Assembly (NCBI GenBank): GCA_034660395.1 | Contig: JAYEJA010000040.1 | Location: forward strand, 4,434 to 68,433 | DNA from: Actinomycetota bacterium | GTDB taxonomy: Bacteria; Actinomycetota; Humimicrobiia; Humimicrobiales; Humimicrobiaceae | Reading direction: 5' to 3' | DNA: 64,000 nt | Part shown: piece after piece, positions 14,424-55,725 of the stretch | How the letters are laid out: each line of letters starts with the position of its first letter | Position numbering within the stretch: position 1 is the first letter of the stretch | The notes under the pieces: model-generated | What the model was told of the DNA's origin: nothing | The model's input: the letters and a program-made list of their open reading frames with translations, nothing else | Databases searched by the model: none | Made by a program: the position numbers and the translations under genes

Positions 14424-15105
14424 TAAAACAAGTTTTTTAGATATTCTAAAAGATATCATCACACCGCCGCTGTGTGCTGTTTGTGGTAATATTGAACCTG
14501 CATTACTATGCGACCAATGTTTATCCGGAATTAACAGGATTGGTGATAATGTGTGCAGTTATTGCGGCAGGCCTTTACCAGCGGATGAGAAAAGCGGCGT
14601 GAGATGCAATTTCTGCAGGATAGATAATTTTAATTTTTACAGGCACAGAAGTTTTGCCGTTTACAGCGGAGGAATAAAAAAGATAATAAAAAAGTACAAA
14701 TATGATAGGATATATGCATTAAAGAAGATTATCAGCATATTCTTTAAGAAAATATATGTTAAAAACTACAAATATGAAAAAATAGATTATCTGGAAACAG
14801 TCCCGGGAATGCATATGGAAATGATTTGTGAATCGTTGTCAGGGTTAATTAAAATTCCATTTATTGGTAATATAATAAGGATAAAGAAAATTTTAAAACA
14901 GCAGGGTCTAGATTTTAACCAGAGAAAAAATAATATAAGAAATGCCTTTAAAGTCAGGAATTGCCTGGTATATTCCGGTAAAAATATCCTTGTTATAGAT
15001 GATGTCTGGACTACCGGGAGTACGTTGACCGAAATTTCTGGTGTCTTAAAAAAGGCAGGTGCTGAAAGGGTTTATCTATTAACTCTGGCAAGGGGGTTAA
15101 AATAA
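14395..15105 (+). CDS. ComF-like phosphoribosyltransferase-domain protein with an N-terminal double zinc ribbon
   Basis: CAVCG..CDQC..CSYCG..CNFC cysteine pairs. C-terminal [12 protein letters not shown] PRTase motif. Confidence 0.7.
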
Positions 15106-15308
15106 AAAAGTCCAGGTTAAAGGGAAAAGTAAAATGGTTCAGCCCGGAAAACGGGTTTGGATTTATAGCGGCGGAATCCGAGGGCAATGGGGATATTTTT
15201 GTAAGGTATTCTTCCATACAGATGGACGGGTTCAAGTCACTTAAAGAGGGACAGAAGGTTGAGTTTGAATTGGATAAAGATGAAAGGGGATATGTTGCAA
15301 AAAAGGTA
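15102..15308 (+). CDS. Cold-shock protein (CspA family). It is absent from the ORF track because there is no canonical start. The putative start is the AUA at 15102; the codon immediately upstream of GKVKWF is TTA.
   Basis: Frame-0 translation [63 protein letters not shown] is an unmistakable cold-shock domain (RNP1 KGFGFI, RNP2 VFVHF-like). SD AGGGGG lies 5 nt upstream of the ATA. There is no ATG/GTG/TTG in frame after the upstream stop at 15063. Confidence 0.6.
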
Positions 15309-15403
15309 GTGGTGGTAGATTGATGAATAGTGTAAAGATGATTGGAGAATTTTATTATTAAATTTTAACAGAATTGAAATAGGCCAGGTAACAGGAGGTA
15401 AGT

Positions 15404-18626: not shown

Positions 18627-19731
18627 ATGGTAGAAGACTATAAATCAAGAATGGATAAATTATTAAAAAAGCTCGTTTTTTTAAAAAACTGTCTTTGAAG
18701 CAGACAGGAAAAATAAAAGACTGGATAAGCTGCAGAAAAAAACCCTTTCTAAGGATTTCTGGGAGGACAGGACCGGGGCGCAGTCAGTAACCCGTGAGAT
18801 TGCAGCTCTAAAGGATATAGCTGATAGAATTAAAGATATAGAAGAAAAAACTGAAAATGTACGTATGGCCCTTGAGATACTTGAAAACGAAGAAGATAAA
18901 AAGGTAGAAAAAGAGCTGGCAGTAACCCTGGATGAAATAGAAAAATTACTGTCAGACCTGGAAGAAGATGCGGTATTAAACGGCAAGTATGATTCTTCCC
19001 AGGCTGTAATTAATATTCACCCCGGAGCGGGGGGCACTGAATCTCAGGACTGGGCAGAGATGCTTCTCAGGATGTATAAGCGCTGGATAGAGGGAAAAGG
19101 ATTCTCTTATAAAATAAATGATTATCAGGCAGGAGAAGAAGCAGGGATTAAAAATGTTACTCTTACGGTAACAGGCAAGAACGCATACGGGCTTCTTAAA
19201 TCGGAAAAAGGGATTCACCGGCTGGTAAGAATTTCACCTTTTGACTCGTCCAAACGAAGGCATACTTCTTTTGCATCGGTAGATATAGTCCCGCTTATGG
19301 ACAGGGATATTGATATTAAACTAAACAAGGAAGATTTAAAGATAGAAACTTTTAAGTCAAGCAGTGCAGGAGGGCAGCATGTAAATGTAACGGATTCGGC
19401 AGTAAGGATTACGCATCTGCCTACTGGAATAGTGGTCCAGTGCCAGAATGAGAGGTCCCAGACGCTTAATAAACAATCTGCTGCCCAGATTCTTAAGTCA
19501 AGATTGTTCGAGCTGGAGAGGGAAAAAAGCAAAGAAGAAATTAGTAAGGTAAGGGGCGAAAAAAAGGATATTGGATGGGGGAATCAGATAAGAAGCTATA
19601 TTCTCCAGCCCTATCAGTTGATTAAAGACCACAGGACGGGCGTTGAAATTGGAAATGTCCAGTCGGTGCTGGATGGTAATATAGATTTGCTGATAAGAAG
19701 TTTTCTTGAAAAAAATTTATACAAAGCGTAA
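18627..19731 (+). CDS. prfB: Peptide chain release factor 2, with a programmed +1 ribosomal frameshift (frame 0 18627..18695, frame +1 from 18697)
   Basis: Frame 0 gives MVEDYKSRMDKLLKKLVFLKNCL and ends at CTT TGA (18693..18698), the canonical RF2 shift site. The +1 frame continues into the 288-aa ORF with SPF..GGQHVN and the GGQ motif. SD GGAGGG lies 5 nt before the ATG at 18627. Confidence 0.85.
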
Positions 19732-24465: not shown

Positions 24466-24815
24466 GGGGGCGACCTGGGTTCGACGGGGATAGGTTGAGC
24501 TTAAGTTGCAAGCCGAGTATCAGAACTCGTAAATAACTGAACCATAAATAAACGCTAATAATAAATTAGCATTAGCAGCCTAATTTAAGCTGCTACGTCT
24601 GTGAAGGGTTTCCTGCGCTTTTCAACAGGCGCCGATTAGCAGGATACTCCGGCATGATTTGTCTGCAGTAGTGCCGGGGGAAGTTTTATGCGGACTGGCT
24701 TTTTTAACCGTGTCCATACGGGTGAAAAAGTGAGAATTTAAAATGTGGACTAAGCTTGTAGATATTTAAGTGGCGATGTCTTCGGACGCGGGTTCGATTC
24801 CCGCCGCCTCCACCA
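24466..24815 (+). ncRNA. ssrA: tmRNA (transfer-messenger RNA)
   Basis: 5' GGGGGCGACCTGGGTTCGACGGGG. 3' GGACGCGGGTTCGATTCCCGCCGCCTCCACCA (tRNA-Ala-like T-arm and acceptor with encoded CCA). Internal tag ORF GCT AAT AAT AAA TTA GCA TTA GCA GCC TAA, giving (A)NNKLALAA. Confidence 0.9.
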
Positions 24816-33295: not shown

Positions 33296-33374
33296 CGGGG
33301 TGTAGCGCAGTTTGGTTTAGCGCACCTGCTTTGGGAGCAGGGGGTCGGAGGTTCAAATCCTCTCACCCCGACCA
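33296..33374 (+). tRNA. tRNA-Pro(TGG)
   Basis: CGGGGTG acceptor, anticodon loop CTTTGGGAG, T-arm GGTTCAAATCC, CCA encoded. Confidence 0.85.
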
Positions 33375-33380
33375 GTACGG

Positions 33381-33456
33381 GCGGGAATAGCTCAATTGGT
33401 AGAGCGTCAGCCTTCCAAGCTGAAGGTCGCGGGTTCGATCCCCGTTTCCCGCTCCA
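33381..33456 (+). tRNA. tRNA-Gly(TCC)
   Basis: GCGGGAATAGCTCAATTGGTAGAGC, anticodon loop CTTCCAA, CCA encoded. Confidence 0.85.
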
Positions 33457-33501
33457 ATTTTTTGAAAAAAAATTATTTGGCATAATGTTTTATGCGATTT
33501 T

Positions 33502-33578
<77 letters not shown>

Positions 33579-33694
33579 GAAATAAAGGCCGGAAGCGGAT
33601 ATGCCGCCTGGCAGGGGTATTGATTGGTTCTGGCAAATTTTTATACCGTATTATAAGTAAGGTATAGGTTGTATAATTTATTTGAAAATTATAT

Positions 33695-33771
33695 GGTGAG
33701 AATAGCTCAGCTGGCAGAGCACAGGATTGTGGATCCTGGGGTCGCGGGTTCGATCCCCGTTTCTCACCCCA
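33695..33771 (+). tRNA. tRNA-His(GTG) with an extra 5' G(-1)
   Basis: G-GTGAGAATAGCTCAGCTGG.., anticodon loop TTGTGGA. Confidence 0.85.
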
Positions 33772-33785
33772 TATTTTTTAGTTTT

Positions 33786-33862
33786 GCGCCTGTAGCTCAG
33801 CTGGATAGAGCGTCGGACTTCGAATCCGTGCGTCGGGGGTTCGAATCCCTCCAGGCGCGCCA
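33786..33862 (+). tRNA. tRNA-Arg(TCG)
   Basis: Same backbone as the Arg(TCT) gene, with anticodon loop CTTCGAA. Confidence 0.8.
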
Positions 33863-33907
33863 TATATAATTTAGAGAAGCCGGTATAGCCGGGTTTAGGA
33901 TGTAAAT

Positions 33908-33983
33908 GGGCCGTTAGCTCAGCTGGTAGAGCACCTGACTCTTAATCAGGGTGTCACAGGTTCGATCCCTGTACGGCTCACCA
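33908..33983 (+). tRNA. tRNA-Lys(CTT)
   Basis: GGGCCGTTAGCTCAGCTGGTAGAGC, anticodon loop CTCTTAA. Confidence 0.85.
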
Positions 33984-33992
33984 TTTTAATTG

Positions 33993-34079
33993 GCGAGAGT
34001 GGCGGAACTGGCAGACGCGCTAGACTTAGGATCTAGTGGGGTAAAACCTGTAGGGGTTCAAGTCCCCTCTCTCGCACCA
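33993..34079 (+). tRNA. tRNA-Leu(TAG), class II
   Basis: GCGAGAGTGGCGGAACTGGCAGACGC, anticodon loop CTTAGGA, long variable arm. Confidence 0.85.
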
Positions 34080-51746: not shown

Positions 51747-53423
51747 TTGAATAAAGAGATAATAATAAGTGAAGACAGAAACGAAACAAGAGCCGCAATT
51801 CTTGAATCCAGGCAGGTTACCCAGCTGTATTTCGAGCGCAGGAATAAAAAGTCCCTGGTGGGTAATATATATGTGGGAAAGGTTAAAAATGTCCTTCCGG
51901 GGCTGGACGCAGCTTTCGTAGACATTGGTGAGGATAAAAACGCCTTTTTATATGTTAACGAAATAGGTTTTGATACCGAGAATTATGATGGAGAGGAAAT
52001 ACCCAAAAAGATACAGCATATCCTTAAGCCCGGCCAGATGATACTGGTTCAGGTAACAAAGGATGCCATGAAGACAAAAGGAGCAAGAATTACCACTTTT
52101 GTATCAATCCCCGGCAGGTACCTGGTTCTTGCACCTTTTAACAAAGGGGTGGGTGTATCAAAAAAATTGAGTTTCAGGGAAAAGGATAATTTAAGGAAAA
52201 CTGTTGAGGAAATTAAGGGAAGTAATGATTATGGACTGATTGTAAGAACTGCGGCAAGGGAAGCGAATAAGGACCTGTTAAAGAAGGACTTGAAGCAGCT
52301 TAAGAAAAAGTGGAGCTATATAAAGAAAAAAGTTACTTTTTTTAAAAAACCCGGATTAATTTCAAGTGAGTATTCGTTGATAATAAAATTAATGCGGGAT
52401 GTTTTTTCTGAGGAATTCAGCGCCATATATGTAGATAAAAAGAATATCAAGAGGGAGATAGGGCGTTATCTCAGATCTGTGGGATTGAAATTTAACAAAA
52501 TAATCGTGCACCATGGCAAGGAGGACCTGTTTGAATCATTTAATATCAATGAAGTAATTGAGAATGCGCTTGAAAGCAAGGTTTGGTTAAAATCAGGCGG
52601 TTTTATAGTTATAGACCACGGTGAAGCAATGACCACGGTTGATGTTAATACCGGTAAATATACCTCAAGCAAGAGCTCGGCCCATACCATATTAAGGACA
52701 AACCTTGAGGCGGCGGAAGCAATCGTAAGCCAGCTCAGGCTCAGGGATATCGGCGGTATAATAGTAATTGATTTTATTGATATGGCAAGTGAGAAGGATA
52801 GGAAAAAGGTTTACAGCAAGTTTATGCGTTGCCTTGAAAACGACAGTACAAAAACCGAAGTCCTTCCGTTCTCAAAACTTGGCCTTCTCGAGATGACCAG
52901 GAAAAATGTTTCCGACGGCATTCTTGGTACGATGTGCAGAACCTGCCCCAGTTGCATGGGCTCCGGTTTTGTAAAGTCAGAGGAAACTATAAGGCTGGAA
53001 ATTGAAAGAAAAATTAGAAAACTTGCCAGGGAGAGCAGGTCAAAAGGGTTTTTAATAAAATTAAAATCTTCTATAGCAGCACAGATTATTGGTTCTGACG
53101 GCAGAAACCTGAAACATCTCGAGAGAACAACCAAAAAATACATTAATATACAGGGGGATTCAAAGCTGCCCCTGGATGCTTTTATCCTGGTTGCAGAGGG
53201 TTCGGTCAAACAGGTGAAAGAGGCGGCACAGCCATTCAGGATAGGAGATATACTCAACCTTGTTGTGGAGGAGCAGTATCTGCATAATAAAAGTGATGCC
53301 ATATCGAGAGTTAACGGATATGTCGTCCAGATTATAGATGGCAGTAAACATATGGGTAAGCGGCTGAAGGTAGAAATCAAGTCGGTATCCAAGACAAGTG
53401 CAGTAGCGGAAATACATGAATGA
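51747..53423 (+). CDS. rng: Ribonuclease E/G family endoribonuclease
   Basis: S1 domain (GNIYVGKVKNVLPGLDAAFVDIG), DNase I-like and Zn-link (CPSC) regions. TTG start with SD GGAG. Confidence 0.85.
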   Translation: MNKEIIISEDRNETRAAILESRQVTQLYFERRNKKSLVGNIYVGKVKNVLPGLDAAFVDIGEDKNAFLYVNEIGFDTENYDGEEIPKKIQHILKPGQMILVQVTKDAMKTKGARITTFVSIPGRYLVLAPFNKGVGVSKKLSFREKDNLRKTVEEIKGSNDYGLIVRTAAREANKDLLKKDLKQLKKKWSYIKKKVTFFKKPGLISSEYSLIIKLMRDVFSEEFSAIYVDKKNIKREIGRYLRSVGLKFNKIIVHHGKEDLFESFNINEVIENALESKVWLKSGGFIVIDHGEAMTTVDVNTGKYTSSKSSAHTILRTNLEAAEAIVSQLRLRDIGGIIVIDFIDMASEKDRKKVYSKFMRCLENDSTKTEVLPFSKLGLLEMTRKNVSDGILGTMCRTCPSCMGSGFVKSEETIRLEIERKIRKLARESRSKGFLIKLKSSIAAQIIGSDGRNLKHLERTTKKYINIQGDSKLPLDAFILVAEGSVKQVKEAAQPFRIGDILNLVVEEQYLHNKSDAISRVNGYVVQIIDGSKHMGKRLKVEIKSVSKTSAVAEIHE

Positions 53424-53604
53424 AGAAATAGAGATTTTTTTGGTTATCGCCAGCCTTTAAATATTTATGATTCTGCTGCCGGCAGATATTAAGTTCTAAA
53501 AACGATTGAATAGCGGTAAATCTATTTGAAAATCCTGAATTATAAAGTTTAAATTAGTATCTAATAATACTATAAATTAGTAGCTAATTCATTTAATATT
53601 ATCA

Positions 53605-53632
53605 TTGACAAATAAATAATAAATTTTATAAT
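53605..53632 (+). promoter_or_regulatory. Consensus sigma-70/sigmaA promoter (TTGACA-16-TATAAT) driving a ~330-nt leader upstream of rplU-rpmA
   Basis: Read directly. Downstream leader contains a perfect 14-bp stem (GAGTGTAATGGCAT...ATGCCATTACACTC) at 53739..53784. Confidence 0.55.
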
Positions 53633-53968
53633 TAATAAAAATAGATATACTTTACAGTAGTTTATTTGAAACTGAATAATTTTGATAATTAAATAATAAA
53701 TTAATTCAAATAAAGGACGCTTCTCATTTTGCCCCCTGAGTGTAATGGCATGTATCTAAATCTAAATATATGCCATTACACTCTAGTATTTTTACACCCA
53801 TAACTTTCTATATTGATAGAAATAAGAGTACAGCCGTTATAAATAAACTAAAAATAATTTTGATAATACCGGACCTCGGGATTTATTATCATAACTTCAA
53901 ATTGACAGGGCAATAATATTTATGTTAATATTGCTGTCTGTAATTTGAAGTGAAAATGGAGGACTAAA

Positions 53969-54286
53969 ATTTACGCAATAATTACTAGCGGCGGAAAGCA
54001 ATATAAAGCTGAAGAAAATAAAGATATAATAGTAGACAGGGTAGAAGGAAAAGAAGGGGAAAAAGTTACCATTAAGAAGGTAAATCTCATAAGTGATGGT
54101 GACAAAATAAAAATTGGGAAGCCCCTCGTATCCAGTGCTGAGGTTAAAGCGACCATAAAGAAACAAATGAAGGGCGATAAGGTGATTGCCTTTAAGTATA
54201 AACCAAAAAAAAGGTACAGAAGGAAAGTTGGGCACAGGCAGTTGCTAACCATGTTGCATCTGGATAAAATAAGCGTAAAGAAATAA
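53969..54286 (+). CDS. rplU: 50S ribosomal protein L21, apparently initiated at an AUU codon (absent from the ORF track)
   Basis: Translation (M)YAIITSGGKQYKAEENKDIIVDRVEG..AFKYKPKKRYRRKVGHRQ is full-length L21. SD GGAGGA lies 5 nt upstream of the ATT at 53969. There is no ATG/GTG/TTG in frame. Confidence 0.75.
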   Translation: MYAIITSGGKQYKAEENKDIIVDRVEGKEGEKVTIKKVNLISDGDKIKIGKPLVSSAEVKATIKKQMKGDKVIAFKYKPKKRYRRKVGHRQLLTMLHLDKISVKK

Positions 54287-54302: not shown

Positions 54303-54557
54303 ATGTCCAGTAAAAAAGGTGTAGGAAGCAGCAGGAACGGAAGAGACAGTAATCCTAAATATTTAGGTATAAAGAAATCCGGAGGCCAGGTTGTGGTTGC
54401 CGGAAATATTATCGTGAGGCAGAGAGGTACTAAATACAAACCGGGCGATAACGTAGGTATAGGAAGAGACCATACGCTCTTTGCACTGAGTGATGGAAAA
54501 GTAGAGTTTATAAAACGCAGTAAAAAGAGAAAAGTGGTAAATATTATTTCTGCCTGA
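54303..54557 (+). CDS. rpmA: 50S ribosomal protein L27 (no N-terminal propeptide)
   Basis: [17 protein letters not shown]27 signature. Confidence 0.95.
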
Positions 54558-54580: not shown

Positions 54581-55177
54581 TTATAGAATCCCCGCGTAAT
54601 GAAGTATAACCCCGGCTGAACCTGCAGCAAGAATTACAGGTATTGGGTGCATTTTTGCCAGGAGAAGGATTGCAAGACTTACTACCGTAATTATAATGGC
54701 AGGAAAGTTAATATTTTCAAGCAGGTTTCCCATAAAGCCGGCATCCAGGAAATTTATGGCAGCAAAATCCTCTTTAAAAAAGGTGTTCCCGGCTACAAAT
54801 ATGGCTGCCTGTATGATTAGCGCCAGCACGACGGGCCTTATCCAGTAAATAGTTTCTTTTAATATCGGGGAGTGTCCATATTTTGAAAGATAATATGATA
54901 CTACAAGAATAAGGATTAGAGAGGGCAGAACAACTCCAGTGGTAGCTAAAAGCCCGCCCGGTATTCCTCCAGTTTTATAGCCGACGAAGGTGGCTATATT
55001 TATTGCAATCGGGCCGGGCGTCATTTCCGATATTGAGATTATATTTACAAATTCCTGATCTGTTAACCATCCCCTGGAGATTATCTCCCTTTCAATAAGA
55101 GGTATCATGCCGTAACCTCCTCCAAAGGAGAACAGGCCTATTTTAAAAAATGTAAAAATCAGGTTTAGATAAATCAT
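54581..55177 (-). CDS. Short-chain chromate ion transporter (CHR) family protein, downstream half of the pair
   Basis: FFKIGLFSFGGGYGMIPLIE CHR motif, 198 aa. Overlaps the upstream partner by 4 nt. Confidence 0.75.
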   Translation of the reverse strand: MIYLNLIFTFFKIGLFSFGGGYGMIPLIEREIISRGWLTDQEFVNIISISEMTPGPIAINIATFVGYKTGGIPGGLLATTGVVLPSLILILVVSYYLSKYGHSPILKETIYWIRPVVLALIIQAAIFVAGNTFFKEDFAAINFLDAGFMGNLLENINFPAIIITVVSLAILLLAKMHPIPVILAAGSAGVILHYAGIL

Positions 55178-55725
55178 CTTTCTTTTTTATTGGTATTTTT
55201 TACCAGATAAATCAGAAGCCCTGTTATAATTCCCAGTATTATTACATAAATTGGATGGAGCCCTGTAAAAAACAGAAGGACAAGGGCCAGGATGGTTACA
55301 AGCGGGCTTATTTTATCCCTGATCCCCGTTTTTGCCACTCTTATGGCTGCTACGATAAGGAGGGCTATTACAGCAGAACTTATACCGTGCAGCGCCGCTT
55401 TCACCACTTCTGAAGTGCTGAAATATGAAAAGATTTTTGCCACGGCGATTATTATTGAAAAAGATGGGATAATTACACCCAGCAGCGCTGACAGGGCGCC
55501 GGAGAGTCCACCTATTTTTCTACCGATAAATATTGCTGAATTAACAGCTACGGCTCCGGGAAAGGATTGTGAAACAGCAAGGATATCTATCATTTCATCA
55601 TGGGAGATCCATTCCTTCTTATCTACTATTTCCTGTTCAATTAAGGGGATCATTGCAAAACCCCCTCCGAATGTGAAAATGCCAATTTTAAAAAAAGTCC
55701 AGAACAGAATTAATTTACTTTTTAT
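55174..55725 (-). CDS. Short-chain CHR family protein, upstream half. The true N-terminus extends upstream of the ORF-track ATG (55653), possibly to the ATA at 55725 or the ATT at 55710.
   Basis: In-frame upstream codons encode LILFWTFFKIGIFTFGGGFA before MIPLIEQ, matching the partner's N-terminal motif. No canonical start occurs in frame after the stop at 55741..55743. Confidence 0.55.
   Translation of the reverse strand: MKSKLILFWTFFKIGIFTFGGGFAMIPLIEQEIVDKKEWISHDEMIDILAVSQSFPGAVAVNSAIFIGRKIGGLSGALSALLGVIIPSFSIIIAVAKIFSYFSTSEVVKAALHGISSAVIALLIVAAIRVAKTGIRDKISPLVTILALVLLFFTGLHPIYVIILGIITGLLIYLVKNTNKKER

Follow-up and report, generated by a model that had tools for sequence, protein, structure and literature searches.

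A predicted AUU initiation codon for ribosomal protein L21 is conserved across the Humimicrobiia

The rplU-rpmA locus

The window analysed here is a stretch of 64,000 nucleotides from a metagenome-assembled genome (MAG) that is labelled Actinomycetota bacterium in GenBank. It carries rplU, which encodes ribosomal protein bL21 (L21), between rng and rpmA. In window coordinates, this locus comprises the following features:

51747–53423, plus strand: rng, an RNase E/G family gene (Pfam) and the upstream neighbour, with a TTG start and an AAGGAG-type Shine-Dalgarno (SD) sequence, in 15 of 15 relatives
53902–53931, plus strand: promoter-like element of the rplU-rpmA operon from a consensus scan, with −35 TTGACA, an 18-nt spacer and a TG-extended −10 TAATAT (TG-n-TAATAT)
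53956–53967, plus strand: out-of-frame mini-ORF ATG GAG GAC TAA (M-E-D-stop), overlapping the SD and ending 1 nt before the ATT
53958–53963, plus strand: SD sequence GGAGGA, followed by the 5-nt spacer CTAAA and the ATT
53969–53971, plus strand: predicted rplU initiation codon ATT (AUU), aligned with Met1 of the bL21 profile and with the corresponding codons of relatives
53969–54286, plus strand: rplU coding sequence, bL21, 105 codons plus stop, from the profile match
54303–54557, plus strand: rpmA (bL27), which follows rplU in the operon and has a GGGAG SD of its own before an ATG start; ATG in 19 of 19 relatives

The open frame at 53954–54286, which begins after a TGA codon (53951–53953), encodes full-length bL21 as read from the sequence and its ORF translation. 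From 53969, the product would be (M)YAIITSGGKQYK..., and the TIGR00061 profile of bL21 is matched over positions 1–101 of 101, beginning at the codon after the ATT, with 107 bits against a cutoff of 43.7. This alignment bears out the original prediction that ATT 53969 stands at the Met of the MYAII... N-terminus. Membership in the bL21 family (TIGR00061/PF00829) is indicated by this full-length match above the curated cutoff as well as by the operon context, rpmA lying 17 nt downstream and in the same order in relatives.

The start region reads AAA ATG GAG GAC TAA A ATT TAC GCA ATA ATT ACT AGC GGC GGA AAG. As had been claimed, the rplU frame lacks a canonical start (ATG, GTG or TTG) at its beginning; the next canonical codon is ATG 54167 at codon 66, from which only 39 aa would be made, and an in-frame stop lies six codons upstream of the ATT. 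The perfect GGAGGA SD 5 nt before the ATT and the nearby ATG 53956, which is out of frame and meets TAA after three codons, are likewise as described. The GenBank entry (MEA2015566.1, 101 aa, annotated by PGAP) starts L21 at ATT 53981, four codons late, and thereby loses the conserved YAII; the SD geometry favours 53969 over 53981 as the L21 start.

Upstream of the SD, 12 aligned relatives show no variation in AATTGACAG or in most of the −10 region. We infer that the element at 53902–53931 is the rplU-rpmA promoter, and rplU would therefore have a putative 5' UTR of ~30 nt. We had considered the conserved block upstream of the SD as a possible RNA motif and rejected this reading in favour of a promoter-like element. 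A search of the whole window against Rfam at the gathering score gave no match at rplU, to the L21 leader or to any other family, and a permissive scan (E ≤ 1) around the gene yielded chance-level miRNA matches only. In addition, RNAalifold found no conserved structure among 12 rplU leaders (consensus −1.8 kcal/mol, no covariation), and the single-sequence fold of the window leader reached a z-score of only −2.0. A structured ribosomal-protein leader of the Rfam families, including the L21 leader, was thus rejected as a candidate at rplU.

The spacer between rng and rplU (53424–53900 region) is itself unusual, measuring 545 nt versus roughly 60–160 nt in most relatives and resembling no fetched locus. 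It contains a perfect consensus promoter-like sequence (TTGACA-16-TATAAT, 53605–53632) and an 18-bp hairpin (53738–53785) followed by a T-rich run, and could represent a small RNA gene or the remnant of an insertion.

Conservation of the rplU start codon in Humimicrobiia and its recurrence in Dehalococcoidia

A scan of species-representative genomes provided 19 loci of the same clade for DNA comparison, with L21 identities of 60–82%; the set includes Candidatus (Ca.) Hydromicrobium americanum and one Ca. Humimicrobiaceae MAG. The codon aligned to the window ATT is ATT in 18 of these related species and ATA in the remaining one. An SD sequence lies 5–6 nt before this codon in all 19, being of GGAGG type, with GGGGG in two and AGGAG in one. 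As in the window, an in-frame stop precedes the codon without an intervening canonical start in 14 of the 19, and the first downstream canonical codon of the relatives lies at least 21 codons into the gene, so that a start there would remove the invariant GGKQYK strand. In the other five, an in-frame ATG or TTG occurs 4–17 codons upstream; these species, like several Dehalococcoidia with upstream canonical starts (see below), may make an extended L21 isoform. The original prediction would have fallen had the orthologues all used ATG at this position; with ATT or ATA in 19 of 19 related species, genuine AUU initiation of rplU is instead strongly supported at the level of sequence comparison.

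Among 61 outgroup rplU loci, 52 carry ATG and three GTG, five have an ATG one codon upstream and one has ATT; the window AUU thus aligns with the ATG or GTG of 55 outgroup loci and occupies the homologous position. Isoleucine codons in the rplU genes of the clade are preferentially ATA (59%, versus 31% ATT), and the start codon is still ATT; this argument is weakened by shared ancestry, given that another Ile column of the alignment is ATA in 20 of 20 sequences.

With L21 as the query, protein comparison brought up relatives that carry the labels Actinomycetota or Ca. Humimicrobiaceae and are oddly variable in length. Of the 92 best-matching clusters (~60% identity or more), 47 have an N-terminal extension of unrelated sequence that runs into the conserved body through an Ile where the Met belongs (...K-I-YAIITSGGKQYK), another 40 are called wrongly, almost always as truncated proteins that start at an internal Val or Met, and one starts a codon upstream (MI...). 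The remaining four start with MYA by NCBI annotation only, and the two that we checked (P0021 and P0052) have ATT in the DNA. No verified canonical start at the proper L21 position was found among the 92 clusters, all of which are consistent with an ATT or ATA start. Based on these alignments, the predicted AUU start of rplU is conserved across a class-level clade that has named members of both Ca. Humimicrobiales families (Actinomycetota), and the comparisons show AUU with its strong SD to be the only plausible start of the gene, under purifying selection.

Neighbouring genes served as controls. Ten other genes were compared at about 95 start sites in the relatives, and every alignable one is canonical: rpmA and rng keep the starts listed above, the comF-like phosphoribosyltransferase gene (14395) keeps its TTG in the six of six relatives where the start aligns, and a second chromate-transporter-family (CHR) gene, two alcohol dehydrogenase (adh) genes, obg, secA, hpf and a DUF2344 gene are canonical wherever they can be aligned. 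In about one in four window genes, the first canonical start is a TTG. Since rpmA, rng and the neighbours keep their own start codons, start-codon identity appears to be preserved gene by gene, and rplU has the only non-canonical start among the neighbours sampled in relatives.

The lone ATT among the outgroup loci belongs to a Dehalococcoidia MAG (GGAGGA, 5 nt, ATT). Indeed, rplU genes of many Dehalococcoidia (Chloroflexota) have GGAGG followed after 5–8 nt by ATT (L021:2944-3003; L167, L174 and L175 around position 401). Of 120 clusters related to Dehalococcoidia L21 in a protein search, 49 show Ile where the Met belongs, typically following ...RR.., the in-frame reading of the SD, and the SD-ATT arrangement was confirmed on the DNA in four distinct Dehalococcoidia sequences; one further sequence has ATT plus a GTG four codons upstream. 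The upstream starts chosen by gene callers in Dehalococcoidia rplU overlap a TTGACA/TAGAAT promoter-like element. By pairwise identity, Dehalococcoidia L21 is closest to Met-starting Chloroflexota L21 (58%) and shares 45% with Humimicrobiia L21, to which it is no closer than other outgroups are. An independent origin of the ATT is therefore the simpler reading, and the Dehalococcoidia codon apparently arose separately from that of Humimicrobiia; a shared origin of the two clades' ATT by gene transfer, which we also considered, finds no support in the pairwise identities.

The csp and CHR genes and alternative explanations

Two further genes of the window lack a canonical start at the expected position:

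15092–15323, plus strand: csp (cold-shock protein), with a GGGGG SD at 15092–15096, a predicted ATA start at 15102–15104 and the stop at 15321–15323
55174–55725, minus strand: CHR gene, with a predicted ATA start at 55725–55723 that aligns with ATG in five orthologues

The claim that three genes in 64 kb lack canonical starts is therefore correct (rplU, csp and CHR, of about 60 genes in the window). For csp, no canonical start occurs before ATG 15222, and ATA 15102 follows GGGGG by 5 nt; the AUA codon and the 5-nt spacing proposed earlier stand, while the SD is not the GGAGGA of rplU. In seven syntenic metagenome orthologues, an ATG or GTG stands at the position of this ATA or no more than two codons from it, and the closest of them (83% identity) has ATG exactly there. 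The csp frame is uninterrupted and its product retains the motifs of the family; relative to the closest orthologue, there are 23 synonymous versus 14 non-synonymous codon differences. In the CHR gene, the first ATG (55653) would cut the conserved FFKIGxFTFGGG motif, and no recognisable SD precedes the ATA. The original prediction had left AUA and AUU open here; because ATA 55725 aligns exactly with the ATG of five orthologues that adjoin rplU-rpmA, the start is read as ATA and not ATT. GenBank likewise starts both proteins at these ATA codons (MEA2015531.1 for csp; MEA2015569.1, 183 aa, for CHR).

We also looked for hidden starts by comparing with NCBIfam 20 other window genes that have at least six open codons upstream of their first canonical start. 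Sixteen matched a model, and all of these fit a canonical start except prfB with its +1 frameshift; the other four matched no NCBIfam model. Two pairs of candidate starts lie 2–3 codons apart and are not separable by homology (ATA 36463 versus TTG 36469; ATA 48026 versus ATG 48035). The prfB gene (RF2; 18627–19731, plus strand) shows the classical programmed +1 frameshift: ATG 18627 and 22 further codons lead to CTT TGA (18693–18698), from which reading continues in the +1 frame. No SD-like stimulator is seen directly upstream of this shift site, and the gene call on the Logan contig begins at ATG 18865, giving a truncated protein. The window also contains an ordinary tmRNA gene (24466–24815, tag ANNKLALAA) and a cluster of seven tRNA genes (33296–34079); none of its eight tRNA genes encodes tRNA-fMet.

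Bacterial genomes do not usually have three such genes in 64 kb, and this sequence comes from a MAG, both of which might suggest that canonical starts were lost through single-nucleotide substitutions or indels in sequencing or assembly. However, the only other public contig that carries the window's L27 protein, a Logan contig assembled independently from run SRR26901925, has the same rplU ATT and CHR ATA and differs from the window by one SNP over 12,255 nt. The csp region, with its ATA, is identical in the Logan assemblies of two runs (SRR26901925 and SRR26901928). The aligned rplU ATT, moreover, recurs in 19 other species (ATA in one of them) as well as in dozens of contigs from metagenomes of unrelated projects. 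These findings refute recurrent 1-nt assembly errors, to which we assign a practically negligible probability. At the lone mismatch (51312), the window has T and the Logan contig C, probably reflecting polymorphism within the population.

It is very improbable that L21 starts elsewhere, at ATA 53978, at ATT 53981, or at ATG 53956 by way of a +1 frameshift or of termination-reinitiation at the AUU. PGAP did choose ATT 53981, and the mini-ORF, ending 1 nt before the ATT, has a geometry that fits termination-reinitiation. Yet the SD is 14 nt away from 53978 and 17 nt away from 53981, a start at either would cost L21 its universally conserved YAI, and ATG 53956 has no SD of its own. An SD-overlapping ATG is absent from 12 of the 19 relatives and lies in three different frames in the others; it is confined to seven of 12 close relatives, a subclade, at offsets of −12, −13 and −14. 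As it is unconserved and its frame varies, frameshifting or obligatory reinitiation was rejected as a general mechanism for rplU. A programmed frameshift of the prfB type joining ATG 53956 to L21 lacks, in addition, a slippery site: GAC TAA A is not of the CUU UGA type, whereas the genuine prfB site in the window has CTT TGA.

Selection on start codons might instead be relaxed across the organism or clade, making rplU, csp and CHR samples of a genome-wide AUU/AUA habit. The three genes without canonical starts, the clade-wide tolerance of AUU by an essential gene (rplU) and the frequency of TTG as first canonical start in the window are in line with this idea. Against it, the alignable starts of rpmA, rng, comF and the other control genes in relatives are all ATG, GTG or TTG, the csp and CHR orthologues use ATG or GTG, and the 16 NCBIfam-matched window genes all fit canonical starts, the prfB frameshift aside. 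The corresponding counts (2/59 versus 0/~95) come from a small sample and do not differ significantly. We regard such a habit as unlikely, and the single organism-wide pattern of odd starts put forward originally finds no support, since the csp and CHR orthologues start with ATG or GTG and the AUU of rplU is conserved in the clade.

As read from the alignments, the csp and CHR codons are recent ATG-to-ATA (G-to-A) changes private to the window genome, unlike the old AUU of rplU; they would lower expression or mark early gene decay. That both are start-loss alleles, young pseudogenes or silenced genes not translated from AUA, is quite possible, though we lean against it. AUA is a weak start, the orthologues carry an ATG or GTG at the aligned codon or close to it, both genes are non-essential, and CHR is without a recognisable SD. 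On the other hand, both reading frames are intact, and csp retains its family motifs, the excess of synonymous over non-synonymous differences noted above and a G-rich SD 5 nt upstream. AUA starts in S. aureus, moreover, gave 10–30% of AUG output (PMC13009471), and expression of csp and CHR is therefore just as likely to be reduced as abolished.

A proposed role for the AUU start and comparison with known systems

AUU is a poor start in model bacteria. We nevertheless consider it highly likely that rplU, behind a promoter-like element of its own and a short, unstructured leader with a strong GGAGG SD, is translated from AUU 53969, and that the codon probably modulates L21 synthesis with IF3 and growth. 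By extension from E. coli infC and pcnB, the initiator fMet-tRNA would read the AUU with a third-position mismatch, and L21 would begin with Met. Initiation would be weaker than at AUG and of the kind that IF3 proofreads against, with an output that would be a fraction of that from AUG (~10–30% in S. aureus reporters). Rather than a neutral accident, the AUU would thereby be a means of setting or modulating how much L21 is made as IF3 and growth status change, and by analogy L21 output is probably sensitive to IF3. A weak start would be awkward for an equimolar ribosomal protein, pointing either to an unusually effective initiation region or to a different initiation machinery in the clade.

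Start-codon choice at rplU seems to be under selection, as suggested by the AUU having been kept class-wide and gained again in another phylum. Conserved bacterial starts other than AUG, GUG and UUG are few, and the best understood of them, that of infC, is regulatory; rplU adds a candidate gene in which the start codon may control ribosome synthesis. To the known cases of conserved AUU initiation it adds a ribosomal-protein gene, a clade-wide distribution and apparent convergence in a second phylum. Our literature search, which mostly covered sources outside subscription journals, found no report of an AUU or ATT start for rplU/L21 and none on start codons in Humimicrobia/Humimicrobiia. The NCBI pipeline silently annotates ATT starts in some Humimicrobiia MAGs. 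Gene callers limited to ATG, GTG and TTG get L21 wrong in these lineages. The L21 gene or its full length is missed on both Logan contigs of the window genome, and Prodigal-type calls on Logan contigs also cut csp to 33 aa and CHR to 159 aa. Such L21 mis-calls distort the marker-gene sets used for MAG completeness and phylogenomics.

In Firmicutes, the L21 leader RNA (Rfam L21_leader) is a cis-acting control element before rplU-rpmA. The window rplU differs in having no Rfam match and no conserved leader structure, and control, if there is any, would lie in the start codon. The AUU might be an adaptive regulatory device with separate origins in two or more phyla of anaerobes that grow slowly (Ca. 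Humimicrobiia and Dehalococcoidia); it would expose the first gene of the L21-L27 operon to IF3 proofreading and ppGpp and take the place of the structured RNA leaders found elsewhere. We hold this broader proposal to be doubtful at present; if true, synthesis of a 50S protein would be coupled, through the start codon, to initiation-factor status and growth.

The AUU of infC is a phylogenetically conserved rather than a sporadic rare start (PMC7797042; PMC5499595), and temperature, nutrient limitation and ppGpp affect mRNAs with AUU starts particularly strongly (PMC5499595). An AUU start of E. coli pcnB is described by Binns and Masters 2002, as cited in PMC13009471. In S. aureus, conserved AUU and AUA starts with strong SDs yield ~10–30% of AUG output; those of cvfC1 (AUU), ccpN (AUA) and infC (AUA) were mapped by ribosome profiling, one case depending on the growth medium (PMC13009471).

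Several traits of the infC and pcnB type recur at rplU, which has no canonical start for the complete protein, an SD at functional spacing and a conserved rare codon. Like rplU, E. coli infC is a gene of the translation apparatus with a conserved AUU and a good SD. However, its product, IF3, itself discriminates against AUU, whereas the product of rplU is a structural protein of the 50S subunit. As L21 is not the discriminating factor, any dependence of rplU on IF3 would be cross-regulation rather than autoregulation. E. coli pcnB is closer in being a non-IF3 gene whose AUU limits translation, the role predicted for the codon in rplU, but its product is an enzyme of low abundance, so that weak initiation makes sense there, while L21 is abundant and stoichiometric. 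The S. aureus genes cvfC1, ccpN and infC share with rplU a conserved AUU or AUA, a strong SD and short spacing; they encode regulators or small proteins and were mapped experimentally, whereas the rplU start is predicted by sequence comparison.
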